From a virus (Duplodnaviria; Heunggongvirae; Uroviricota; Caudoviricetes): a stretch of DNA of 26,181 bases. The notes beneath the pieces are model-generated. The model did not search any database, had not been told where the DNA came from, and worked only from the letters and a program-made list of their open reading frames with translations. Position numbers and translations under genes: made by a program. The DNA lies in IMG/VR virus record IMGVR_UViG_2778261575_000004; one strand, written 5' to 3'. This document shows, one piece after another, positions 2,486 through 18,282 of the stretch; the stretch's first letter is position 1; each line of letters opens with the position of its first letter.

Positions 2486-3502
2486 TTAAATTAAGTTATA
2501 AAGAGGGTTTTTTGTTACTGCATCCTCCAGGTGGTCTGGAGAGAAGTGTGCATAAATCATCGTCATTTTAATATCTGAGTGCCCTAAAATATCACGTAAA
2601 ACGAGTATGTTCCCACCGTTCATCATAAAATGGCTGGCAAATGTATGGCGCAGGACGTGGGTGCATTGGCCTTCCGGTAGTTCAATACCGGCCCGTTTTA
2701 CCGCCCGTTCAAAGGCTTTTCTGCATGGTGTGAATAATTTCCCTCGGTTTTTGGGTAGCTCGTTGTACAGATCCTGAGATATCGGTACGGTACGGTTTTT
2801 TTTACCCTTGGTCTTTGTATAGGTAATCCGGTATTTCGATAGTTGATGGCCCTGCAGGTTTTCAGCTTCACTCCAACGAGCACCGGTTGCTAGGCATATT
2901 TTTGCAATCATTAGCAGACTGGGGCTTTGAGAATCAGCACAGGCATCCAGCAGACGTTTAATTTCCTCCGGGGTTAGGAACGCCAGTTCACCCTCCGTAA
3001 TTTTAAATGTTGGAAGCCCGGCAAGCGGGTTGGGGGCTGACCAGTGGCCCAGCTTTTTCAGTGTACCAAAAACAGATGATAGGTTGCGCTGTTCAAGGTT
3101 TACCGTGCGGGGCTTAACGGGTGACATGAACGAGCCGTCTTCATTTTGGACCTCCCCCTTTAATCTGGCTTCCCGATATTTTGTGAAATCACCTGCTGTC
3201 AGCTCAGAGGCGATGGGATCGCCTAGACCATTACAGATAATTCTAAGTTTCGCCATCAGGCGTTTGGGGTCTGCGAGTGTTTGACCATATAGGGAATACC
3301 ACTGCTCAATCACTTCTGATAATCGCCGCCGATCTTCCTTCTCACCAAGCCATGGCTTTTTGTTTACTTCGTTCATGGTGAAGTTTTCGAATGCTATGGC
3401 TTCGCCTTTCGTGGCAAATTGCTTACGCACGCGCTTGCCATTGCGTCCATTGGGATAGCACTCACACAACCATTTTCCGTTCGGCTGTTTTCTGATGGTC
3501 AT
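2486..3502 (-). CDS. int: Tyrosine integrase, P2/186 Int family
   Basis: 338-aa ORF. N-terminal GRNGKR motif and C-terminal catalytic region (LATGARWSEA...HVLRHTFASHFMMNGGNILVLRDILGHSDIKMTMIYAH) typical of P2-type integrases. Adjacent to the att repeat and to the cI stop codon. Confidence 0.95.
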   Translation of the reverse strand: MTIRKQPNGKWLCECYPNGRNGKRVRKQFATKGEAIAFENFTMNEVNKKPWLGEKEDRRRLSEVIEQWYSLYGQTLADPKRLMAKLRIICNGLGDPIASELTAGDFTKYREARLKGEVQNEDGSFMSPVKPRTVNLEQRNLSSVFGTLKKLGHWSAPNPLAGLPTFKITEGELAFLTPEEIKRLLDACADSQSPSLLMIAKICLATGARWSEAENLQGHQLSKYRITYTKTKGKKNRTVPISQDLYNELPKNRGKLFTPCRKAFERAVKRAGIELPEGQCTHVLRHTFASHFMMNGGNILVLRDILGHSDIKMTMIYAHFSPDHLEDAVTKNPLYNLI

Positions 3503-3503
3503 A

Positions 3504-4136
3504 TCAAAGGCTCTTAATGATTTTCAGTGCACGGCCTACTACCTCAATGTCATCCAGGCCACACTCAAACGATGAATCATCCTGATGCACTACTAATCTG
3601 TTTCCCGGGAGTCGAGTCAATTTAACAATGCTTTTTATCCCGTCGATATCGACTAACCACATACCATTCACTGGTGGTGTTTGGTTGCGATCTATTAAAT
3701 AAGAATCACCAGAAGTAGTCACCAGCAGTAGGTTGCTTGAGTCTGAGGGGAGTATGCTGCTATCAATGATTGCTTTTCCAGCATCGACCAATAAACCACC
3801 GTTGAGAGTCGCCTTGTCAATTTCAGGAGATACTAGTTCAGAAAGAGGTACAACCTTGCTGGAGTTCACGGAATTGATATTTTTTTTGGGTTCAATGTTT
3901 GGACCTGGCTCCCCCTGTCCGGTGGTTAGCCACAGTAAAGAAACTCCTGTTTCCAAGGCGCACTGAATCACCCACTCTGCAGGAAAACTATCTCTTAAGT
4001 ATCTGTTTGCCATGGTGCTTTTTGATGCGCCTAAGTGATCGCAAAGTTGCTGTCTGGACTTGAAATCATAGGCTGCCATTAGTCTATGGATAGCTTCTCT
4101 TCCCCCTGTATTCTCTCCAGCCTTTACCTGTATCAT
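3504..4136 (-). CDS. cI: CI-type immunity repressor (186 CI-like, N-terminal HTH)
   Basis: 210-aa ORF immediately upstream of int on the same strand (stop at 3504, int start at 3502). Position and divergent arrangement with the apl/cII operon match the 186 lysogenic operon. Confidence 0.8.
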   Translation of the reverse strand: MIQVKAGENTGGREAIHRLMAAYDFKSRQQLCDHLGASKSTMANRYLRDSFPAEWVIQCALETGVSLLWLTTGQGEPGPNIEPKKNINSVNSSKVVPLSELVSPEIDKATLNGGLLVDAGKAIIDSSILPSDSSNLLLVTTSGDSYLIDRNQTPPVNGMWLVDIDGIKSIVKLTRLPGNRLVVHQDDSSFECGLDDIEVVGRALKIIKSL

Positions 4137-4148
4137 TTTTTAATCCTG

Positions 4149-4177
4149 TTGACGTATCAAATATTGGATCGTAGTAT
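4149..4177 (+). promoter_or_regulatory. Candidate rightward early lytic promoter (pR-like)
   Basis: TTGACG (4149-4154), 17-bp spacer, TAGTAT (4172-4177), about 80 bp upstream of the apl start; overlapped by the operator-like repeats. Confidence 0.5.
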
Positions 4178-4200
4178 CTCGATGTATCAAATATTGAATC
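4154..4200. repeat. Operator-like 17-bp direct repeats in the cI-apl intergenic region
   Basis: GTATCAAATATTGGATC (4154-4170) and GTATCAAATATTGAATC (4184-4200), one mismatch, each with internal near-dyad symmetry; straddle the candidate -10 element. Confidence 0.45.
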
Positions 4201-4255
4201 AATTAAAACGAGATAAAACGACGTAAACCAAACCTTAATCGGGAGATACTGCACT

Positions 4256-4498
4256 ATGAGCACTGATATTTCAATTCGTGTACCAAAAGAGATGGCTACG
4301 CCTGCAGAGTTCGCGGAATGGGAAGGTATCTCCCGCGGCTCCGTGTATCAAAAAATTCACCATGGTCAGCTTGCTAAATACATGGTCAAGAAAGAAAAAA
4401 ATAAAGGCCGCGTAAACCTTCGTTATCTGATGTACAAAACTGATCAGGTCCGTGAATCCCTCGGTCATTCCAACTTCCGCGTCATTGTTGGTAAGTAA
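4256..4498 (+). CDS. apl: Apl/Cox-like small HTH excisionase and lytic regulator
   Basis: 80-aa ORF, first gene of the rightward operon opposite cI; size and position match 186 Apl. Confidence 0.7.
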   Translation: MSTDISIRVPKEMATPAEFAEWEGISRGSVYQKIHHGQLAKYMVKKEKNKGRVNLRYLMYKTDQVRESLGHSNFRVIVGK

Positions 4499-4530
4499 GT
4501 TCAATTATGGGAACTTTCTAAGGGGGCACC

Positions 4531-5040
4531 ATGTTTGATTACAAGATTTCCAAACATCCGCATTTCGATGAAGCCTGTAGGGCTTTTGCACTGCGTCACA
4601 ACCTGGTGCAACTGGCAGAACGTGCAGGCATGAATGTACAGATTCTGCGGAACAAGCTGAACCCAGCTCAGCCTCATTTATTAACCGCACCAGAAATCTG
4701 GCTGCTTACCGATCTGACTGAAGATTCAACGCTGGTAGATGGTTTTCTGGCACAGATTCATTGTCTGCCATGTGTACCGATTAATGAGGTGGCAAAAGAG
4801 AAACTGCCACATTACGTCATGAGTGCAACCGCAGAGATCGGGCGTGTTGCTGCAGGTGCGGTATCTGGCGATGTAAAAACCTGTGCCGGTCGTCGTGATG
4901 CTATCAGCAGCATTAACTCTGTAACACGACTGATGGCGCTGGCGGCTGTTTCATTGCAGGCCCGTTTACAGGCTAATCCTGCGATGGCGAGTGCAGTTGA
5001 TACCGTGACTGGCCTCGGTGCTTCATTCGGTTTGCTGTGA
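4531..5040 (+). CDS. cII: CII-like lysogeny establishment regulator
   Basis: 169-aa ORF with strong RBS (AAGGGGG), second gene of the early operon; size and position match 186 CII. Confidence 0.65.
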
Positions 5041-5047
5041 GGTGCTT

Positions 5048-5344
5048 ATGCTGACGAAAGAACCATCATTTGCATCGCTGCTGGTAAAACAAAGCCCGGC
5101 AATGCACTACGGTCACGGCTGGATCATGGGTGAGGATGGTAAACGCTGGCATCCGTGCCGTTCACAAGATGAATTGCTGTCTGAATTGACCACGGGGAAA
5201 CGGAGAAAGTCAAAATGTATGCAGCGGAAAGTGAAGTGGTTTATCAGTTTCGTTACAGAGGGGAGAGTTATTCAGTACCTGAAGATGATTTGCTCTGTTG
5301 TTATCCGTCGTTGTCGGGCGATGGCAGTTACTTTTTCACGCTAA
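5048..5344 (+). CDS. Hypothetical early protein (Fil-like position); 3' end uncertain
   Basis: ORF starting at ATG 5048 after GAGGTG. Its last ~130 nt overlap, in another frame, the better-supported ORF starting at 5215, so the true C-terminus or the reading frame is uncertain. Confidence 0.35.
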   Translation: MLTKEPSFASLLVKQSPAMHYGHGWIMGEDGKRWHPCRSQDELLSELTTGKRRKSKCMQRKVKWFISFVTEGRVIQYLKMICSVVIRRCRAMAVTFSR

Positions 5345-5439
5345 AGGATGGGACGTTTTTACGGGGAGAGCAGGTTAAAGAAACGATACGAAAAAATGTA
5401 TCTCCTCTCGAACGTTACCGTAAGAACAAAGAACAATAG
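5215..5439 (+). CDS. Hypothetical small early protein
   Basis: 74-aa ORF with good RBS (ACGGAGAAAGTCAAAATG) in the early operon. Confidence 0.5.
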   Translation: MYAAESEVVYQFRYRGESYSVPEDDLLCCYPSLSGDGSYFFTLKDGTFLRGEQVKETIRKNVSPLERYRKNKEQ

Positions 5440-5461
5440 TTGCGTTTTGGGGATATGAATT

Positions 5462-5803
5462 ATGGCAATTAATGGCGCTGCAGCGACTGTTCCATTAAGC
5501 CCCGGTGAACGCCTGAATGGACTTAATCATATTGCGGAGTTAAGGGCGAAAGTATTTGGCCTTAATATTGAGTCAGAGCTTGAGCGGTTTATTAAAGATA
5601 TGCGTGATCCACGGGATATCAATAATGAACAAAATAAACGGGCACTGGCTGCCATATTCTTTATGGCAAAAATTCCAGCTGAACGTCATAGCATCAGCAT
5701 TAATGAGCTGACCACTGACGAAAAGCGGGAGTTGATTAAAGCAATGAATCATTTTCGTGCAGTGGTGAGCTTATTTCCCAGACGGCTAACCATGCCGAAT
5801 TAA
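5462..5803 (+). CDS. Hypothetical early protein
   Basis: 113-aa ORF in operon context. Confidence 0.55.
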   Translation: MAINGAAATVPLSPGERLNGLNHIAELRAKVFGLNIESELERFIKDMRDPRDINNEQNKRALAAIFFMAKIPAERHSISINELTTDEKRELIKAMNHFRAVVSLFPRRLTMPN

Positions 5804-6630: not shown

Positions 6631-7484
6631 GCACCATCCTGAAATGGGCGGGAAATAAAACCGCAATTATGTCTGAACTGAAAAAACACCTTCCTGCTGG
6701 CCCGCGACTGGTTGAACCTTTCGCGGGTTCCTGTGCTGTGATGATGGAGACGGATTATCCAAGCTATCTGGTTGCGGATATTAATCCTGATTTAATCAAC
6801 CTCTATAAAAAGGTTGCCGCTGATTGTGAATCGTTTATATCTCGCGCCAGAGTTTTATTTAAGGAAGCAAACAGGGAGGTGGCTTATTACAACATAAGGC
6901 AGGAGTTTAATTACTCAAATGAAATTACTGATTTCATGAAAGCGGTATATTTCCTGTATCTCAATCGTCACGGTTACCGTGGTTTATGTCGCTATAACAA
7001 GAGCGGGCATTTCAACATTCCCTACGGTAATTATAAAAATCCGTATTTCCCAGAAAAAGAAATTCGCGCATTTGCAGAAAAAGCCCAGCGGGCAACGTTT
7101 ATCTGCGCCAGCTTTGATGAAACGCTGGCGATGTTGAAGGCGGGGGATGTGGTGTATTGCGATCCGCCGTATGACGGCACGTTTTCCGGTTATCACACTG
7201 ACGGCTTCACTGAAGATGACCAGTATCACCTGGCATCCGTTCTTGAACATCGGTCATCAGAAGGACATCCGGTCATTGTTTCTAACAGTGACACATCCCT
7301 GATCCGTTCGCTGTATCGCAATTTTACTCACCACTACATCAAGGCAAAACGCAGCATCGGTGTGGCAGCTGGCGAGGGTAAATCAGCAACAGAAATCATT
7401 GCTGTTTCCGGGCCGCGCTGCTGGGTGGGATTTGATTATTCGCGTGGCGTGGATAGTTCTGCCGTGTACGGAGTACGTGCATGA
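6627..7484 (+). CDS. dam: DNA adenine methyltransferase (Dam-type, GATC-class N6-adenine MTase)
   Basis: Start ATG 6627 after AGGAGG. N-terminal KWAGNK and FAGSCAV motifs (AdoMet binding) and a DPPY catalytic motif (VYCDPPY). Confidence 0.9.
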
Positions 7485-9895
7485 GTCATGCCGATATGAA
7501 CAACTGCTGCGGCTTTAACGAAGCTGCCGCATCGTTCTCATGGAACAGCCCGAAAAAGGCCATTAACCCTTATCTGGACCCGGCGGAAGTTGCGCCGGTT
7601 TCTACGCTTTCAAACCTGATCACTCTGTACGCTGCCGATAACGAGCAGGAACAGCTGCGCCGTGAGGCGCTGAGTGATCAGGTCTGGGAGCGTTATTTCT
7701 TTAATGAATCCCGTGATCCTGTCCAGCGCGAAATGGAGCAGGATAAGCTCATTAGTCGGGCAAAGCTGGCGCATGAGCAGCAGCGTTTTAACCCGGACAT
7801 GGTCATTCTGGCAGACGTCAGCGCCCAGCCCTCCCATATCAGCAAGCCGCTGATGCAACGTATTGAATACTTCAGCAGCCTTGGCAGGCCAAAGGCTTAT
7901 TCCCGCTATTTGCGTGAGACGATTAAGCCATGTCTGGAACGGCTGGAGCATGTACGCGACAGTCAGCTATCCACATCTTTTCGCTTTATGGCAAGCCATG
8001 AAGGGCTGGACGGCCTGCTGATTCTGCCTGAAATGAGTCAGGATCAGGTGAAACGCCTGTCCACCCTTGTTGCTGCGCATATGAGCATGTGCCTTGATGC
8101 AGCTTGTGGCGATTTGTATGCCACCGATGACGTTAAGCCAGAAGAAATCCGCAAGACATGGGAAAAGGTGGCAGCAGAAACCCTGCGACTGGATGTCATA
8201 CCGCCTGCGTTTGAGCAACTCCGCCGGAAAAGAAACCGCCGTAAACCCGTGCCATATGAACTCATTCCGGGTTCGCTGGCGCGTATGTTGTGCGCCGATT
8301 GGTGGTACCGGAAATTATGGAAGATGCGTTGCGAATGGCGGGAAGAGCAGTTGCGTGCTGTTTGCCTGGTCAGCAAAAAAGCATCTCCCTATGTCAGCTA
8401 TGAAGCCGTGATGCATAAACGTGAGCAGCGCCGTAAGTCGCTGGAGTTTTTCCGTTCTCATGAACTGGTGAACGAAGACGGCGACACGCTGGACATGGAG
8501 GATGTGGTAAACGCCAGCAGCAGCAACCCTGCGCATCGCCGCAATGAGATGATGGCCTGTGTTAAAGGTCTGGAGCTTATCGCGGAAATGCGCGGTGACT
8601 GCGCCGTTTTCTACACCATCACCTGTCCGTCACGTTTCCATTCCACGCTAAATAACGGCAGGCCCAACCCGACCTGGACAAATACGACGGTAAGACAAAG
8701 CAGTGATTATCTGGTCGGCATGTTTGCTGCATTTCGTAAGGCGATGCACAAAGCCGGATTGCGCTGGTATGGCGTGCGGGTGGCTGAGCCGCATCATGAC
8801 GGTACAGTTCACTGGCACCTGTTGTGTTTTATGCGCAAAAAAGATCGCCGCACCATTACTGCTTTGTTGCGTAAGTTTGCCATTCGTGAAGACCGCGAGG
8901 AGCTGGGTAATAACACGGGACCACGCTTTAAGTCTGAGCTGATAAACCCGCGCAAAGGTACGCCAACAAGCTACATCGCGAAATACATCAGTAAGAACAT
9001 TGACGGGCGTGGTCTGGCTGGCGAGATCAGCAAGGAAACGGGTAAATCCCTGCGTGATAACGCTGAATACGTTAATGCCTGGGCGTCTCTGCATCGTGTT
9101 CAGCAATTCCGCTTCTTTGGCATTCCGGGGCGTCAGGCTTACCGTGAACTGCGATTGCTGGCTGGTCAGGCGGCAAGGCAACAGGGGGACAAAAAAGCAG
9201 GTGCGCCGGTACTGGATAACCCGCGCCTTGATGCAATCCTGGCTGCTGCTGATGCTGGTTGTTTTGCCACCTACATCATGAAGCAGGGCGGCGTACTGGT
9301 TCCCCGCAAATATCACCTCATCAGAACTGCTTATGAAATCAACGAAGAACCGACCGCATATGGCGATCACGGTATTCGTATTTATGGCATCTGGTCACCC
9401 ATTGCAGAGGGCAAGATCTGCACTCATGCGGTGAAGTGGAAAATGGTTCGTAAGGCCGTTGACGTTCAGGAGGCGGCAGCCGACCAGGGCGCTTGCGCCC
9501 CTTGGACTCGTGGCAATAACTGTCCCCTTGCTGAAAATTTGCACCAACAAGGGAAAGACAAATCAACTGATGGGGATACCAGAACGGATATCACCCGTAT
9601 GAATGACAAGGAGTTGCACGATTACCTGCACAGTATGAGCAAAAAAGAGCGCCGGGAACTGACAGCAAGATTACGCCTGGTGAAACCGAAACGGCGTAAA
9701 GACTACAAACAGCGAATTACAGAGTATCAGCGTCAGCAGCTTGTCTATGAACTGAAGTCCAGAGGATTTGATGGCAGCGAGAAAGAAGTCGATTTGCTCC
9801 TTCGCGGTGGCAGTATTCCATCAGGAGCAGGCCTGCGTATCTTCTATCGGAACCAGCGTCTGAAGGAAGATGATAAGTGGCGGAACCTGTATTAA
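7481..9895 (+). CDS. A: Replication initiation endonuclease, P2 gpA family (rolling-circle initiator)
   Basis: 804-aa ORF, ATGA-coupled to dam; contains the HxH metal-binding motif (TVHWHLLCF) and the conserved tyrosine-containing region ([14 protein letters not shown]) typical of gpA-type nickases. Confidence 0.9.
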
Positions 9896-10047: not shown

Positions 10048-10236
10048 ATGCAGGACTATTTTTTGGAGTCTTTGAAGCTCCAGCGCATTGATTTTTTTCT
10101 TAAGCTTGTAGCGGCTAGTGAGTGTAGTGATGAAGAGAAGGGGCTGGCCCTGCAGTGGGTTTCTGAACTGACAGATGAACTCATGGCAAAAATCAGAACC
10201 CACGAATACAACCGCTCAATGGATGTCATCAGTTGA
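10048..10236 (+). CDS. Tum-like antirepressor, N-terminal portion (possibly one gene with the next ORF)
   Basis: 62-aa ORF with RBS GGAGGAAAG directly downstream of the LexA box. Overlaps, in a different frame, the 5' extension of the following DinI-like ORF. Confidence 0.45.
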   Translation: MQDYFLESLKLQRIDFFLKLVAASECSDEEKGLALQWVSELTDELMAKIRTHEYNRSMDVIS

Positions 10237-10246
10237 GGTGGCTTTT

Positions 10247-10480
10247 ATGCGCATTGAAATAATGATCGATAAAGAGCAGAAGATTAGCCAGTCTACCCTG
10301 GACGCCCTTGAATCCGAGCTTTACCGCAATCTGCGCCCCCTGTATCCCAAAACGGTAATTCGTATCCGCAAAGGTAGCTCTAACGGTGTGGAACTGACCG
10401 GACTGCAACTGGACGAAGAAAGAAAACAAGTGATGAAAATTATGCAGAAGGTGTGGGAAGACGACAGCTGGCTGCATTAG
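10247..10480 (+). CDS. DinI-family protein (Tum C-terminal domain-like)
   Basis: 77 aa beginning MRIEIMIDKEQ...RIRKGSSNGVELTGLQLDEERKQVMKIMQKVWEDDSWLH, which resembles DinI (MRIEVTIAKT...ETWESADDWF). Confidence 0.75.
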   Translation: MRIEIMIDKEQKISQSTLDALESELYRNLRPLYPKTVIRIRKGSSNGVELTGLQLDEERKQVMKIMQKVWEDDSWLH

Positions 10481-10608: not shown

Positions 10609-11349
10609 TCAGTTTTCTTTGAATTTTTCACTTAATCGTTTCGTCAATACTTCGACAGATTCTTTGCGACCGGAGAACAAGTCATTGACGACGTACTCCA
10701 TAATCTCAAAAGCATCCTCAATGTCTTTGACTTTTACTTCATCGTAGGTATGGCTTCCGGCATTTCCTAAAAATTTAATTGCCATAAGAGGTCTTGAAAA
10801 CGATCCGTATAATTCAGGTAGCATCCCTAAACGGTGGTGTAGAGTTATGCGTTTGCCATTATCATTACGTTCAGCTACATCCATAGCGGTTAGCATTCTT
10901 TCAACTGAAATTCGAATTAGGTTTGCTGCTGCGCCAGGCTGTATTAGGAAAATGGAAAATGAGGCTTCAAGCGGTTCGGTAATTTCTTCTGGGCATTTTT
11001 CAGGTATTTCGAAAGGATGCAGTGATGGGTAAAAGGTGAAAGGTCTGTGCCATTGATAGTACTCAATATCATTTCTTTCTTCATCCCAACCTTGTTCCCA
11101 TCCACTCTTACCAGTACAGGCCACAACTTCACCACATTGCATTCTTGAACAGCGGGCCATGCAACTGAAAATAGATGAATCCATTTCTAGTTCAAACCAA
11201 TCTTCACTGCGGAATTTTCGGGTATCATGTGTGTCATACGAGACGAAACTTTCTTTAATGATCTGTAGGGTTTTCTGATTGCAGTTAGGGCAGGGCCACT
11301 CAACCTGCATATCGTGGAAAAACGCACCAGAGAGCTTGTGCACAGTCAT
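10609..11349 (-). CDS. Hypothetical protein: N-terminal Cys-rich zinc-ribbon-like region plus C-terminal DUF4145-like helical domain; candidate defence/exclusion gene at the P2 tin/old position
   Basis: 246-aa ORF with RBS GAGGAA, AT-rich. Cys pairs CPNC (20-23) and C63/C67/C72/C78. C-terminal LIRISVERMLTAM...AIKFLGNAGSHT...VKDIEDAFEIMEYVVNDLF resembles, from memory, the GN.a.H-containing DUF4145 domain. Sits between A/tum and cos, where P2 carries tin and old. Confidence 0.6.
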   Translation of the reverse strand: MTVHKLSGAFFHDMQVEWPCPNCNQKTLQIIKESFVSYDTHDTRKFRSEDWFELEMDSSIFSCMARCSRMQCGEVVACTGKSGWEQGWDEERNDIEYYQWHRPFTFYPSLHPFEIPEKCPEEITEPLEASFSIFLIQPGAAANLIRISVERMLTAMDVAERNDNGKRITLHHRLGMLPELYGSFSRPLMAIKFLGNAGSHTYDEVKVKDIEDAFEIMEYVVNDLFSGRKESVEVLTKRLSEKFKEN

Positions 11350-11550
11350 TCTTTGTGTTCCTCATTTTTATGATTGGTAGGGATTGTATCTTCATACACG
11401 ATTACAGTTGCATTAAAGATAAGCCATAGCAAGCTACTGGAAAAGAGACGAAACAGTTGGGCATATCAGATGTTTTTTCTTAAGGTAAGTTGTTGTGCAT
11501 GCCTATACTGCATGAGATTGCATGATCGTTTGAGGATCGTTATTGCTAAG

Positions 11551-11575
11551 GCCCACCAGAACTGGCGGGCTTTTG
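11551..11575 (+). other. Imperfect hairpin followed by TTTTG in the cos-proximal region
   Basis: GCCCACC-agaac-TGGCGGGC then TTTTGCG; one mismatch in the stem. Could be a terminator or a packaging-related structure. Confidence 0.25.
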
Positions 11576-11619
11576 CGTAGAGCATGCAGGTGCATGAAAA
11601 CCACTACATAAAGCGGGCA

Positions 11620-11638
11620 GGCGTGGCGGGGATACGAG
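11620..11638. other. cos-like site (P2/186-type cohesive end sequence)
   Basis: GGCGTGGCGGGGA matches the first 13 nt of the 19-nt cohesive end as I recall it for 186 (GGCGTGGCGGGGAAAGCAT) and P2 (GGCGAGGCGGGGAAAGCAC); followed by a GCGCGC-rich segment. Lies between the A-side hotspot and portal gene Q, as expected for a P2-like prophage. Confidence 0.4.
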
Positions 11639-11910
11639 CGCGCGCCGCGGGTTGAAATAGTAAAATTCACTTAGCCTCAGGCCCGCTGATGGTTTTCTTC
11701 TGAAAGGGAGGGCGCGTTTTTGTGCAATCTTGTTTGAAGGGATTTAAATAAATGTTGAATGTGTTCCGGAGTTGGCTGTAGATTTAGTGTTCTGTCACAA
11801 GTTGCAGTGATAGGTAGCAAACCTTTAAAAGGTTCTGCTATTGTTTCATTAAAGATTTATAGTCTTTGTCCGAAAATGACATTAAAGTAGTCGCCTTTAA
11901 TGTCGTAAGC

Positions 11911-12465
11911 ATGAAGGACAGAGAATTGAACTTAGAGCAGATTGCCAGTCAAAGTATAAGTAACCTTCAGTTTCTCCTCGATACTTTGAAGATGCCGTTG
12001 GCTGTTGGTCCAATCAGTGATGAAGACTATGTGATCCTGACCACAGGATACGCTCAGCTAGAATGGGATTATGGTTTTTCTCGGTTTGGCAATCGAAGTG
12101 ATAAGTTTGAATTTTGTTTGAAGCTCCTTGCGGGGCCACTTAGGCATATCCCTTCTGGCGCAGCTATGTGCACCTTTGACGAGGACGCTGGAGTCATAGA
12201 GATCCATTTTGTGGAATCTTTTGTGAAAGATGATGACGTAGAGCACCCTCTTTACGGCAACATGTTCATGGTTACATTGTGGGCGGTATATCTTTTTGGT
12301 AGCGCGGTTGGGTGTCAAGAGATTCGGATCCCTGAAGCCCTGAATCAAAAAGTTGCTGACCACTATAAAAAATTTGGTTTTAAAGGTGATATAAGCTTGC
12401 TTTCGGCACCTTTTGCTACAATAACTGATGTAGTAAGACGCTACATTACTTCTAAGAAACAGTAG
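11911..12465 (+). CDS. Hypothetical protein, cargo between cos and Q (possible degenerate GNAT-like C-terminus)
   Basis: 184 aa from ATG 11911 (the ORF track gives 199 aa from TTG 11866). C-terminal ...ALNQKVADHYKKFGFKGD is reminiscent of the GNAT motif-B signature, but no clear motif A is seen; assignment weak. Confidence 0.5.
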   Translation: MKDRELNLEQIASQSISNLQFLLDTLKMPLAVGPISDEDYVILTTGYAQLEWDYGFSRFGNRSDKFEFCLKLLAGPLRHIPSGAAMCTFDEDAGVIEIHFVESFVKDDDVEHPLYGNMFMVTLWAVYLFGSAVGCQEIRIPEALNQKVADHYKKFGFKGDISLLSAPFATITDVVRRYITSKKQ

Positions 12466-12544
12466 ATAAATTTTTGCGCAGTGCTACAATGCTGCGCCAA
12501 ACATCCACCACCGGATGATGAGGCTTGACCTCTAAGAGGAAATC

Positions 12545-12724
12545 ATGACTATGACGCATAGTGACAAGAAAGCTCAGAAGCATTACTCAGTATCTGATGT
12601 TTTCAGCCGTATGGGCGTCGCGATGGAAGAACTACTTCAAGCGGCCCCACATATGATGCAGGACTGCAAATTTGAAGGAAATGAGCTGCATGGTAAGCTC
12701 AAAGAAAAGCAGAAAGCTGCTTAA
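12545..12724 (+). CDS. Small hypothetical protein (59 aa)
   Basis: Hand-translated ORF not in the supplied track: ATG 12545 preceded by AAGAGGA at 7 nt, stop TAA 12722-12724, immediately followed by a strong terminator. Confidence 0.35.
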   Translation: MTMTHSDKKAQKHYSVSDVFSRMGVAMEELLQAAPHMMQDCKFEGNELHGKLKEKQKAA

Positions 12725-12747
12725 TTCCATGAAATGCGTTTTGCATG

Positions 12748-12775
12748 AAGCCCGGTAATACCGGGCTTTTTTATG
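12748..12775 (+). terminator. Rho-independent terminator
   Basis: Perfect palindrome AAGCCCGGTA-A-TACCGGGCTT followed by TTTTTTAT; lies between the small ORF and the 3' end of Q. Confidence 0.7.
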
Positions 12776-12779
12776 CTTG

Positions 12780-13817
12780 CTAGTCAGTATTAAGCTCATA
12801 TGGATTGAATCGGACTACCTCTTCACCAAGCCATTCATTTAGCTCCAGCAATCGCTTTTGTAACGGTACTATTTCGTTTCTTGTGAAGACGCGACTGGCC
12901 TTTTCCACATCCCCAAAACCGCCGGTATTGTTGGGAATGATACCCATCATTTGCGGCGGCACACGATGCGCCGCCATCATGTCGTCCCGGCTCACGTTCT
13001 TGATATTCAGGAACTCATCCTTCGCCGCCACTTCTGACAACGGGATAATCTGAAGCCCATCCTTTTTGCCGTTAGGCGAGTACATAAACAGGTTACGGAA
13101 GTTACCAGGACCTTTGGCACTTTTCATTGCGTTGCGGAGGTTGTTCACATCCTCCTGGTTCTGCGCGGCGTCGGTCATGTACATGATGAAGCCCGCATGG
13201 CTGCCGTTAATGTAATACTTCCGGCGGAACAGCGTGGCGGACTCGTTGAGCAGGGCTGACGGAATGGCAGAAAGATAACCGGGCAGGCCGTAGATCTCCT
13301 GGTTGATGTCCGGCTCCATCAGATGAAAAATGCTGCCTTTCGTGAACTGATACGGCTGGGTTGTCATACTGTATTGCACAAACCAGTAGGTATCCAGGTC
13401 TAACCCGCGTCGGGTGTATTTTGCCAGAGCAGGCTCAAGGGCTATAACTTCACCGAAGCGGTTCGTGCGTTTCTCCAGGTAGGCGTTACCAAAAACCAGA
13501 AAGTCCTGTACAAAACGCGAAAAAGCCTGCTGGCTGAGCAGCGGGTGAGGGATGTAGGTGCTGGTCAGAATGTTGCACTTCACTGCAATCGGTGAGCTAT
13601 GATGTATGGCGGCGCGGAAGGTTCGCGCCAGTCCGTCGAAACTCACAGGCAGCTCATACCAACGATCCATCTGTACGCATTCCACATAGTCCAGCAGTTC
13701 GCGGCGGTCCAGAACAGGAACGGGATCACCGAAGCTGAATGCTTCGGCTGAAGTCTGGCTTTTATGCTGGATCTGTTTCGTCGACGCAGCGCGGTTCTTC
13801 TTACTCTTTCCCATCAA
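12780..13817 (-). CDS. Q: Portal protein (P2 gpQ family)
   Basis: 345-aa ORF, first of the leftward Q-P late operon; size and position as in P2; 4-nt overlap with P. Confidence 0.88.
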   Translation of the reverse strand: MMGKSKKNRAASTKQIQHKSQTSAEAFSFGDPVPVLDRRELLDYVECVQMDRWYELPVSFDGLARTFRAAIHHSSPIAVKCNILTSTYIPHPLLSQQAFSRFVQDFLVFGNAYLEKRTNRFGEVIALEPALAKYTRRGLDLDTYWFVQYSMTTQPYQFTKGSIFHLMEPDINQEIYGLPGYLSAIPSALLNESATLFRRKYYINGSHAGFIMYMTDAAQNQEDVNNLRNAMKSAKGPGNFRNLFMYSPNGKKDGLQIIPLSEVAAKDEFLNIKNVSRDDMMAAHRVPPQMMGIIPNNTGGFGDVEKASRVFTRNEIVPLQKRLLELNEWLGEEVVRFNPYELNTD

Positions 13818-15580
13818 AAAATCTCCACAATATTGCTGGTATTGGCGGACTCGCCCTGCAGCGGTTCGTTAAACAGTGCGTGCATTGTTGCCCAGGCCAG
13901 ATCGGCATGGCTGGCTTCTTCGCTGCGGCTGGCTTCATAGGTCGGGCGGTTGCCACTGGCAGTGGTAGCGCGACGGATTGCCATAAATGACTGCGCAATG
14001 TCGGTGTGCCCGGCGTCAAACTCCAGGCGGCGGTGGCTGATAATGTCGTAGGCCTTGAGTACCAGGGCGTTTTTAACGTTGGGGTTGTAGACAAACTCCC
14101 GGACGGCAGGAAAAAACGCTTTCACGTTCTCGTAAACCCCGTGACCGACGCCGGTCGAGTCGATGCCGATATAGGTCACGTTATACTGTTCGGTCAGTTT
14201 TTTGATGGCGTCAGCCTGGGCGCGAAAGTCCATTCCGCGCCACTGGTGACGCTCAAGAATGCGGAACTTGCCGCCCGGCACGGCTGGCGGAGCCACCACC
14301 ACGCATCCGGCGCTGTCGCCGTTTTGCGTACCTTTTGCCGGGTCATAACCGATCCACACTTCGCGCCAGCCAAACGGGCGCAGCGCCAGTGCATGAAAGT
14401 CGGTCCAGACTTCCCAGCTGTCCACCATGCACGCCTGCAGCTCGCTGAGCGGGAACACGGACGCGAGATCGTCCACGAACTCACACATCAGCAGGTTCTG
14501 GTATTCGTCCGGGCTGTACTCCATGCGCAACTGGTCGAGGTCGAACAGGTTACAGCCGCCGCGCACCGCATCTTCCACAGTGACTATCTGGCGGTACTGC
14601 CCGTCTGCGCACAGCAGGCCGGGGGCCAGATTGCTGTGGGACAGGTCGATGTCCACCTTATCGGCTTTGTTGCGCCCTCGGTTGAACAGCGCACCGGACC
14701 AGAACGGATAAGCACTGTGTGTCAGGCTGGATGGCGTGGAAAAATAGGTTTGTCGCCATTTTTTGTGAATAGCCATACCGGAAGCCACTTTGCGCAGCTC
14801 CTGGAATTTCGGTATCCAGAAATATTCATCCAGATACAGGTTGCCGTGGTAACTCTGGGCCGTGCGGGCATTGGTGCCGAGGAAGTACAGCGTGGCCCCG
14901 TTAGGAAGCACCATCGGATCGCCTTTCAGCTCCACCTCCACTTCTTTGGCGAAGTCGATGATGTACTGCTTAAAGACGTGGGCCTGAGCCTTGCTGGCGG
15001 AAAGGAAAATCTGGTTACGCCCGGTTAGCAGGGCGTCAATCAGGGCTTCACGGGCAAAATAGAAGGTCGCGCCGATCTGGCGTGACTTCAGCAGGTTGCG
15101 GATGCGGTTGGTTTTTCCGGCTTCCCACCAGTGGCGCTGGTAGTTGAACATGGAGGAATGGAAGATTTCTTCCAGCTTCTCAATCTGTTCATCGGTGAAA
15201 ACGTTCTTTTCCGGCTGACGGCGCGGGCCTTTGTTGCGGTTGGCGACGTTAGGGTTTAAGTCGGCTTCGTTGCCGCCATTGTTAAACTTGCCGATCCGCG
15301 CATGGCGCTCCGACTGGCGCGCCAGCAGGTCAATCTCTTTGAAATCTTTCCCTTCTTTGTGCTCCTTCATAATGAGCTGGCAGTAGCGTGCGGCGGTGGT
15401 GAGCTGCATCTGATCCAGCGGCCCATAGTCACCCCACTTGTCGCGTTTTTTCCAGCTGTGAACGGTTGCAACTTTCTCGCCCAGCATTTCAGCAATGCGG
15501 GCGACGCGGTATCCCTGAAAGTACAGCAGCATGGCCTGCCGACGGGGATCGAGATCTGCGGGTGTCAGTGTGGTGTTCAT
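13814..15580 (-). CDS. P: Terminase large (ATPase) subunit (P2 gpP family)
   Basis: 588-aa ORF divergent from O-N-M-L; Walker-A-like NLLKSRQIGATFYF and a C-terminal nuclease region. Confidence 0.9.
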   Translation of the reverse strand: MNTTLTPADLDPRRQAMLLYFQGYRVARIAEMLGEKVATVHSWKKRDKWGDYGPLDQMQLTTAARYCQLIMKEHKEGKDFKEIDLLARQSERHARIGKFNNGGNEADLNPNVANRNKGPRRQPEKNVFTDEQIEKLEEIFHSSMFNYQRHWWEAGKTNRIRNLLKSRQIGATFYFAREALIDALLTGRNQIFLSASKAQAHVFKQYIIDFAKEVEVELKGDPMVLPNGATLYFLGTNARTAQSYHGNLYLDEYFWIPKFQELRKVASGMAIHKKWRQTYFSTPSSLTHSAYPFWSGALFNRGRNKADKVDIDLSHSNLAPGLLCADGQYRQIVTVEDAVRGGCNLFDLDQLRMEYSPDEYQNLLMCEFVDDLASVFPLSELQACMVDSWEVWTDFHALALRPFGWREVWIGYDPAKGTQNGDSAGCVVVAPPAVPGGKFRILERHQWRGMDFRAQADAIKKLTEQYNVTYIGIDSTGVGHGVYENVKAFFPAVREFVYNPNVKNALVLKAYDIISHRRLEFDAGHTDIAQSFMAIRRATTASGNRPTYEASRSEEASHADLAWATMHALFNEPLQGESANTSNIVEIF

Positions 15581-17631: not shown

Positions 17632-18282
17632 ATGAGCCTGAGTCCCGCACGGCAGCATCGCCTGCGCGTTCAGGCTGAACAGGCCGCCCGTGAGGGCGGC
17701 AGTGTTCGCCACGCGTCGGGCTATGACCTGATGCTGCTGCAACTGGCAGAAGACCGCCGCCGTCTCAAGGGCGTTCAGTCCACGGTGAAAAAAGCGGAAA
17801 TCAAGGTGGAGCTGCTGCCGAAATATGCCGCCTGGGCGGAGGGCGTCCTGGCTGGCGGAGGCGCTCAACAGGATGACGTGCTGATGTACGTGATGCTGTG
17901 GCGCATTGATGCCGGAGATTATGCCGGGGCGCTGAAGATTGGGCGTCATGCCCTGCGTCATGGCTGGGTGATGCCGCTGGGTAACCGCAACGTGCAGACC
18001 GTGCTGGCAGAGGAAATGGCAGATGCAGCGCAGAGCGCAATGCTTGCCGCCACCGGCTTTGATGCCGATCTGTTGCTGCAGACGCTGGAGCTGACAGACG
18101 GTCTGGATATGCCGGACCAGTCACGGGCGCGTCTGCATAAAGCGATTGGCGCTGTCCTGAGTGAAAGCAATCCGGCTTCCGCCCTTAATCATCTCAACCA
18201 TGCGTTACAGCTCGATCCCCGCTGTGGCGTGAAAAAAGACAAACAGCAGCTGGAGCGCAGACTGCGCAATGACAGCCGCTGA
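17632..18282 (+). CDS. M: Terminase small/endonuclease subunit (P2 gpM family)
   Basis: 216 aa; LMYVMLWRIDAGDYAGALKIGRHAL and TLELTDGLDMPDQSRARLHK resemble P2 gpM. Confidence 0.85.
   Translation: MSLSPARQHRLRVQAEQAAREGGSVRHASGYDLMLLQLAEDRRRLKGVQSTVKKAEIKVELLPKYAAWAEGVLAGGGAQQDDVLMYVMLWRIDAGDYAGALKIGRHALRHGWVMPLGNRNVQTVLAEEMADAAQSAMLAATGFDADLLLQTLELTDGLDMPDQSRARLHKAIGAVLSESNPASALNHLNHALQLDPRCGVKKDKQQLERRLRNDSR

Follow-up and report, generated by a model that had tools for sequence, protein, structure and literature searches.

A 151-bp cassette in a P2-like prophage that very probably represents a cos site of the Fels-2/SEN8 subtype

We found that a 151-bp segment at positions 11495-11645 of the window, the whole 26,181-nucleotide stretch of viral DNA analysed here, is very probably a cos site of the Fels-2/SEN8 subtype, belonging to a P2-like (Peduoviridae) prophage, as judged by comparison with known cos sequences. 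The homology of this cassette to other cos sites, its boundaries, the conservation of its register and its linkage to a terminase clade were obtained directly, and on these the assignment is built; the exact nick positions in the window are predicted, by analogy with the annotations of the P2 and 186 records. A sequence-only reading of this DNA had proposed a packaging region here, and in this it was probably correct, given that the predicted 19-nt end is identical to the annotated cos of SEN8 and that the upstream repeats lie at distances fixed across the family. The feature is already known, this cos subtype having been annotated before in Salmonella phages Fels-2 and SEN8, and the current picture of P2-family packaging is unchanged by our result.

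When positions 11350-12800 were compared with phage records by megablast, the match between SEN8 and 11350-11619 stopped at the last base of the SEN8 record. That record opens with GGCGTGGCGGGGATACGAG, labelled 'putative cos site', which is the same as the sequence at 11620-11638 (+ strand) that we predict to be a 5'-protruding cohesive end. The genome announcement of SEN8 gives the same 19-mer as cos, assigned by annotation and not by end sequencing (PMC5427200). For P2, 186 and P4, in whose records cohesive ends are annotated, we joined the right end of each record to its left end and aligned the product to the window. It can be seen that the joined ends align without gaps from -29 to +26 relative to the top-strand nick, that is, over a 55-bp core at 11591-11645 (+ strand) which runs from TGCATGAAAACC...AAGCGGGCA through the 19 nt to CGCGCGC and is the counterpart of the block common to P2 and P4. 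Identity to the window over this core is 55/55 for Fels-2, 54/55 for SEN8, 44/55 for 186, 43/55 for P4 and 42/55 for P2, and over the 19-mer it is 19/19 for SEN8, 15/19 for 186 and 14/19 for both P2 and P4. The gap-free block is of the same length as the '55-bp core' that three papers (PMC9594776, PMC5694545 and PMC3931495) attribute to Ziermann and Calendar (1990). The match of 11620-11632 to the P2/186 cohesive end, which had previously been proposed, was borne out base for base, at 42-44/55 in the core with P2, 186 and P4 and in the same orientation toward Q. The sequence concerned, GGCGTGGCGGGGA, has its sole exact match within the window at this place, where it is followed by TAC and then by GAGCGCGCGCCGCGGG at 11636-11651. 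All 13 positions of the conserved 5' part agree with the GC-rich 19-nt end, starting GGCG(A/T)GGCGGGGA, that characterises the P2 family.

Besides this start of the overhang, the window shares with P2, 186 and P4 the motif AAAACC, the sequence AAGCGGGC ahead of the top nick and (T/C)GCGCGC past the bottom nick. It differs from them in the last six bases of the overhang, which are TACGAG in the window versus AAGCAC or AAGCAT, and in the sequence from -23 to -12. The same cos type as in the window is found in SEN8 and Fels-2 (Felsduovirus), RE-2010, SopEPhi and many Klebsiella and Escherichia P2-like prophages. The window is like Fels-2 and SEN8 in the limits of the 151-bp cassette and in having cargo genes between cos and the portal gene, and unlike them in carrying five rare substitutions in the upstream array and in its cargo genes, which are dissimilar on both sides.

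By analogy with P2 and 186, a terminase made up of gpM and gpP would cut the top strand 5' of 11620 and the bottom strand opposite 11638/11639, leaving nicks staggered by 19 nt. Virion DNA would then carry 5'-GGCGTGGCGGGGATACGAG overhangs, which after injection would be re-annealed and then ligated. Reading from the sequences, GCG(G/C)GC stands one base outside each predicted nick in inverted orientation, giving the site a partial two-fold symmetry. The terminase of P2 acts preferentially on monomeric circles, and it requires proheads in order to cut. For annotation purposes, the predicted virion genome ends of the prophage can be placed at 11620/11638.

The limits of the element were determined with IMG/VR loci retrieved by a pattern that covered only -31 to +13 (44 bp), which gave 113 unique contexts whose ungapped identity to the window was scored. 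Identity was 90-100% at nearly all positions of 11495-11645 (+ strand, -125 to +26 relative to the top-strand nick) and about 25%, the random level, just outside on both sides. From this drop we conclude that the element is a sharply bounded cassette of 151 bp. Minimal cos is said to span about 125 bp, a figure that we did not count as evidence. The right edge is formed by CGCGCGC at 11639-11645 (+ strand), just beyond the bottom-strand nick, which is 89-100% conserved in the same contexts, with a fall to 8% at 11646; P2, 186 and P4 have their (T/C)GCGCGC at this very position. Matches of E. coli sequences to either flank likewise both break at the cassette limits. The interval initially assigned to the site, 11496-11720, was therefore well placed on the left and in the centre, as far as 11645, but its remainder, 11646-11720, lacks conservation and is part of a cargo module. 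Similarly, the GC-rich palindromic segment that had been described there is conserved as far as CGCGCGC at 11639-11645, but CGCGGG from 11646 onward is variable. The cassette carries TGCATGAAAACCACTAC...GGCGTGGCGGGGATACGAGCGCGCGC, as expected of the Fels-2/SEN8 subtype, and is linked to a gpP at least 92% identical. The rare substitutions of the window are at 11502, 11507, 11542, 11555 and 11582, with none in a GCATG core or the nick region.

The cassette may be divided into two parts, the core at 11591-11645, which would hold the cut sites, and an upstream array at 11495-11590, which comprises three direct GCATG repeats, a GC-rich inverted repeat and the CATGCA/TGCATG inverted repeat. The direct repeats occupy 11496-11525 (+ strand), with TGCATGC at 11496 and TGCATGA at 11509 and 11519, corresponding to -124, -111 and -101. 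The nick-proximal 6-bp inverted repeat, CATGCA-GG-TGCATG, is at 11583-11596 (+ strand, -37 to -24). Five copies of TGCATG(A) had been listed in the sequence-only reading; four of them are direct copies on the + strand (11496, 11509, 11519 and 11591), but the fifth, listed at 11582, is an inverted copy, CATGCA, that occupies 11583-11588 and pairs with the 11591 copy. The full heptamer TGCATGA is present only three times, at 11509, 11519 and 11591. Two copies are exactly 10 bp apart, as had been stated (11509 and 11519), but the description of the repeats as phased has to be given up, the spacings being 13, 10 and 72 and the repeats keeping a fixed register with the nick instead of a regular phasing. 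TGCATG is depleted across the window (14 observed versus 28.8 in shuffles), and five of the 14 occurrences fall inside 101 bp. A cluster of at least five was seen in 3/300 first-order Markov simulations, which carry about twice the real motif density, so that the test is conservative. Judged from the sequence by itself, such clustering is out of the ordinary without being overwhelming; the matter is decided by the comparative evidence, which is much stronger.

This evidence comes from the positions of the repeats in other phages. TGCAT starts at -124 (-123 in P2), -111, -101 and -29 in the window, P2, 186 and P4, although the DNA between these fixed repeats has diverged past recognition, and the copy at -29 is present in all seven sequences compared. 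The inverted ATGCA at -36 is found in the window, SEN8, Fels-2, the Yersinia phage and 186 and is absent in P2 and P4. We also assembled a second IMG/VR set, with a P2/186/P4-type core, which was cut to 57 representatives less than 85% identical upstream of the core. GCAT was present at -110 in 37/57 and at -100 in 38/57 of these representatives, and ATGC at -36 in 42/57, where about 0.2 of 57 would be expected by chance for each fixed-offset position. Among the 113 Fels-2-type contexts it is GCATG that forms the invariant unit, with cores 97-99% conserved and a variable leading T.

In phage lambda, cos is organised as cosQ-cosN-cosB, with R sites for gpNu1 and a site for IHF. The cassette described here has no sequence similarity to lambda cos, the repeat motif is a different one, and the overhang is 19 nt as against 12 nt; yet, as in the textbook description of lambda, there is a staggered-nick site with partly symmetric flanks and an array of short repeats on one side. 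This likeness suggests a division into a nicking site and a binding site, and we infer from the fixed register that the repeats may be a cosB-like array for terminase recognition and assembly, analogous to lambda cosB. In the literature searched we found no demonstration of terminase binding to GCAT repeats. Transduction of P2 cosmids was increased about 10^4-fold by longer cos flanks (PMC9594776), and an accessory role for the flanks of cos is consistent with this. The 151-bp cassette, with its register-locked GCAT repeats, provides a concrete and testable definition of the packaging signal of Fels-2-type phages, which should be of use in the design of cosmids or transducing particles and in asking which terminase subunit reads the signal.

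Two further elements lie inside the cassette. A direct repeat of GATCGTT, in two copies 11 bp apart that provide two GATC sites, is at 11524-11541 (+ strand). It is specific to the Fels-2-type cassette, where most of its positions are 94-99% conserved (113 contexts), and is absent in P2, 186 and P4. Between the two repeat groups there is a GC-rich inverted repeat, GCCCACCAG-AA-CTGGCGGGC, at 11551-11570, followed by TTTT (11551-11574 in all, + strand), which could be a hairpin resembling a terminator or else a protein site with two-fold symmetry. In 75 distinct cassettes the stem is conserved and variation is mostly in the loop. In the window itself the rare G-to-A change at 11555 introduces an A-C mismatch that weakens the stem. 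Analogues of the central inverted repeat with other sequences are present in 186, P4 and many other cassettes, but P2 is without one; as P2 lacks both this element and the -36 copy, neither can be universally required.

The surroundings of the cassette are those of a P2-like prophage, with an integrase (2486-3502, - strand), a repressor (3504-4136, -), replication gene A (7481-9895, +), a DinI-like gene (10175-10480, +) and an A-side accessory gene for a zinc-ribbon and DUF4145 protein (10609-11349, -) to the left of cos, and to its right the portal gene for gpQ (12780-13817, -; Pfam Phage_portal), the large terminase gene for gpP, which has an N-terminal HTH (13814-15580, -; Pfam Terminase_6N, Terminase_6C and Terminase_5), the capsid genes and, beyond them, the small terminase gene for gpM (17632-18282, +; Pfam PF05944, E = 3.7e-40). 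The ORFs of Q, P and M are complete, and their Pfam matches extend over the full length; both terminase subunits are encoded on the same element as cos. The gene order is that of P2 and 186, with cos between the A-side accessory genes and Q and the GGCG... strand running toward Q. The window ends inside the tail genes and hence does not contain the whole prophage. A PDB sequence search with gpM gave no match. In loci of the same cos type, gpP is 92-100% and gpM 81-100% identical, as against 61-64% and 48-52%, respectively, in P2-type loci. The cos subtype accordingly tracks the terminase clade, a correlation confounded by the fact that the terminase genes lie physically close to cos. A probe for satellites with P4 Psu gave hits in 0/121 Fels-2-type cos loci versus 14/120 P2-type loci, although satellites with a divergent Psu could escape it.

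Between the end of the 19-mer (11638) and the stop codon of Q (12780) there are 1141 bp, in agreement with the earlier figure of about 1.15 kb. The contrast with P2 that had been drawn from it is real, but it reflects a habit of the clade and is no oddity of this element. In P2 and 186 no more than about 170-190 bp separate cos from the adjoining Q, and the A side alone carries cargo. Among 96 loci of the P2/186 type, 83 have cos no more than 270 bp from the Q stop and 13 have cargo between them (median 169 bp); among 87 of the Fels-2 type, window included, only 14 are that close and 73 contain cargo (144-3522 bp, median about 1.5 kb), with a separation above 500 bp in 73/87. Genes between cos and the portal gene are also present in each of SEN8, Fels-2 and Escherichia phage 500465-1. 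The gap of 1141 bp is thus unremarkable in the clade of the window and reflects a slot for cargo genes that is normal there. On the A side, cos lies 203-205 bp past DinI in 49/93 loci, which means that cargo is absent there, and 1140 bp past it in the window. We conclude that Q is 1.1 kb away as a result of the insertion of variable cargo genes on both sides of the cassette.

The module on the Q side, outside cos (11646-12779, + strand), has one ORF for a 184-aa protein (11911-12465) and another for a 59-aa protein (12545-12724), and a terminator scan found a terminator-like hairpin at 12747-12769. The two proteins belong to phrog_4350 and phrog_2741, both of unknown function. Neither ORF had a Pfam or PADLOC hit, and the 184-aa protein had no NCBIfam match and no PDB sequence match. 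The A-side product of 10609-11349 matched Pfam DUF4145 (E = 4.9e-13) and PADLOC PD-T7-4 (E = 1.6e-5) and would, by these matches, be distantly PD-T7-4/RAZR-like; it had no PDB sequence match. Rousset et al. (2022, PMC9122126) and a later paper (NAR 2026, PMC13586616) describe the gpA-gpQ interval of P2-like phages, 'adjacent to cos', as a defence hotspot, and PMC5694545, citing Dodd and Egan (1996) and Nakayama (1999), gives the position between cosL and Q as an insertion hotspot proposed earlier. The window resembles both in having variable accessory genes directly against cos, between A and Q, and differs in being filled on both sides of cos, where its clade usually fills the Q side. Here the accessory region from A to Q is divided by cos into two slots for cargo that are independent of each other, one with the distant PD-T7-4/RAZR-like gene and the other with the two genes of unknown function.

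These observations can be brought together in a wider model, which we consider about as likely to be right as wrong: the GCAT array and the central inverted repeat would be the P2-family equivalent of cosB, the cassette would be an anchor for the swapping of cargo, and in the Fels-2 clade the cargo slot would have moved to the portal side. Either gpM or the HTH domain at the N-terminus of gpP would recognise the putative cosB equivalent, which would be common to helper phages and P4 satellites despite the unrelated DNA that surrounds it. The 151-bp cassette might act as a homologous anchor, or as a recombinogenic site by way of its cut ends, allowing cargo on either side to be swapped independently, and it is the main cargo slot that would have shifted to the portal side of cos in the Fels-2 clade.

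A different explanation for the upstream half (11495-11590), which we regard as unlikely, is that it is conserved for reasons that do not involve terminase, either as an intrinsic terminator at 11551-11574 that ends a rightward DinI/SOS operon and keeps transcription off cos, or as sites for a host architectural protein or regulator. A terminator would account for the T run after the hairpin and for the preference of variation for the loop, the cos of P2 works without the hairpin, and where DinI ends 203-205 bp before cos the hairpin is the first terminator-like element that transcription would meet. However, the equivalent inverted repeats of 186 and P4 have no T tail, the annotated 186 terminator t95b is farther upstream, the gene upstream of cos in the window is on the opposite strand, and the constant distance to the nick would be left unexplained by a terminator. 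P4, moreover, keeps the GCAT repeats in register although cos is reported to be its sole region of homology to P2 (PMC9122126). It is less probable still, in our estimation quite improbable, that the site is a cos homologue that is neither cut nor packaged, a non-functional relic in a defective prophage. Decay of this kind could be read from the five rare substitutions, including the stem-breaking one at 11555, and from a closely related E. coli prophage with the same right flank whose portal gene is truncated by an IS66 element, and the window does not contain the prophage to its end. Nevertheless, the core is indistinguishable from that of Fels-2, the substitutions spare every GCATG core and the nick region, Q, P and M are complete, and a second E. 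coli prophage, whose portal and terminase genes are intact, has this cassette haplotype as well. The residual risk that this copy of cos sits in a defective prophage is smaller than that concerning the ends and the proteins that bind the repeats.

That the real packaging site lies elsewhere, for example at 12470-12780 beside Q, with 11620 a chance match or a duplicated relic, we consider extremely improbable. It would restore the arrangement of P2 and 186, where cos is within about 190 bp of the Q stop, as is kept in 83/96 P2-type loci, but the separation seen in the window is the rule in Fels-2-type loci, and 12470-12780, a part of the cargo module, contains nothing more than a small ORF and the terminator hairpin. 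A search of the whole window for GGCGWGGCGGGGA with up to two mismatches gave a single other match, at 7441 with two mismatches, and a second cos nearer Q was thus rejected. Equally hard to credit is a small protein or non-coding RNA encoded by the conserved block. ORFs of 39-68 aa do overlap the block in the window, and the records of Yersinia and Klebsiella phages annotate hypothetical proteins over it, but the best frame across the cassette is free of stops in only 29/75 distinct cassettes (0-5/75 for the other frames), and the variability of these 75 cassettes does not follow a codon period (0.078, 0.091 and 0.107 in the three phases). Rfam likewise gave no match for the block or its vicinity at E up to 1, and the fold energy of the cassette was no better than that of shuffled sequences (z = -0.19). 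A small protein or structured RNA was rejected on these grounds, and with no conserved frame, no periodicity, no Rfam match and no unusual fold, the annotated hypothetical proteins are most likely spurious.

A cos site flanked by variable cargo remains our preferred reading, and the flanks of the window are themselves mosaic. No complete E. coli genome with both flanks was found; one set of E. coli sequences matches 11494-12800 at 99.4% and has a different left flank, and another matches from 10500 to about 11645-11654 at 99.7-99.9%. The five rare upstream-array substitutions are common to the window and the prophage of APEC IMT5155, which has the same left-hand gene, and from 11583 on the window also matches prophages with the same right-hand module. 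From the flank matches and the pattern of substitutions, we place a junction inside the cos core, at about 11583-11645. Such a junction fits homologous recombination in the cassette, or else recombination at cos ends of the kind suggested by Rousset et al. (PMC9122126).

We found that cargo genes lie between cos and the portal gene Q in 84% of the IMG/VR loci with a Fels-2-type cos (L012-L131), as against 14% of those with a P2/186-type cos (L134-L253), and that the DinI side, to the left of cos, is free of cargo in 53% of the Fels-2-type loci. We conclude that this contrast in cargo placement between the two cos types is a clade-level one.

In the window, the Q side holds two plus-strand genes, at 11911-12465 (184 aa, phrog_4350) and 12545-12724 (59 aa, phrog_2741), and a strong terminator-like hairpin lies 3' of the pair at 12747-12769. 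Neither gene gave a Pfam, PADLOC, NCBIfam or PDB match. Because of its position, we regard the module as a candidate accessory or defence module. It also adjoins cos in several E. coli genomes, with 99.4% identity. The same module is present in E. coli 504239 (locus 3787-5509), where an IS66-family element truncates the portal gene, and that prophage is therefore defective.

The cargo gene on the A side (10609-11349, minus strand) encodes a protein of 246 aa whose N-terminal part carries Cys pairs and whose C-terminal part is a DUF4145 domain by Pfam (E = 4.9e-13). PADLOC returned a weak match of this product to PD-T7-4 (E = 1.6e-5), which has recently been characterised as RAZR, an abortive-infection system with a zinc-finger HEPN RNase (PMC13017515). 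A search of PDB sequences with the protein gave no match, and, judged from sequence comparison, any relationship to PD-T7-4/RAZR would be distant at best.

The left and right modules that flank the window cos are found apart in E. coli genomes, and both flanks together were found in no complete E. coli genome. When window 11494-11654 was compared with the E. coli 504239 locus, which shares the right-hand module, and with the locus of E. coli APEC IMT5155, which shares the left-hand gene, a haplotype switch was seen within the cos core, at approximately 11583-11645.

Within the cos cassette, a GATCGTT direct repeat at 11524-11541, with copies 11 bp apart and two Dam GATC sites, is strongly conserved among Fels-2-type cassettes, whereas the cos regions of P2, 186 and P4 are without it. 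Position 11555 is A in the window and in the IMT5155 prophage and G in 98% of cassettes; with A there, the 9-bp stem formed by the central inverted repeat contains an A-C mismatch. Mechanical calling gave three ORFs of 39-68 aa that overlap the cassette, at 11374-11580 (plus strand), 11466-11585 (minus strand) and 11503-11670 (minus strand), and the homologous block is annotated as hypothetical proteins in some public phage records. These ORFs and hypothetical proteins are probably a mis-annotated cis-acting site.

A homologue of P4 Psu, used as a probe for satellites, was present in 14 of the 120 IMG/VR loci with a P2-type cos and in none of 121 Fels-2-type cos loci (IMG/VR L012-L131). Either P4-like satellites seldom use the Fels-2 subtype, or the Psu that they carry has diverged too far for the probe. 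A single viral contig, IMGVR_UViG_3300011853_000021 (L057), carries the cos core twice in opposite orientation, at 6673-6716 (plus strand) and 3453-3496 (minus strand), approximately 3.2 kb apart and with a Q homologue beyond each; the contig may contain two prophages side by side, or the arrangement may be an artefact of assembly.
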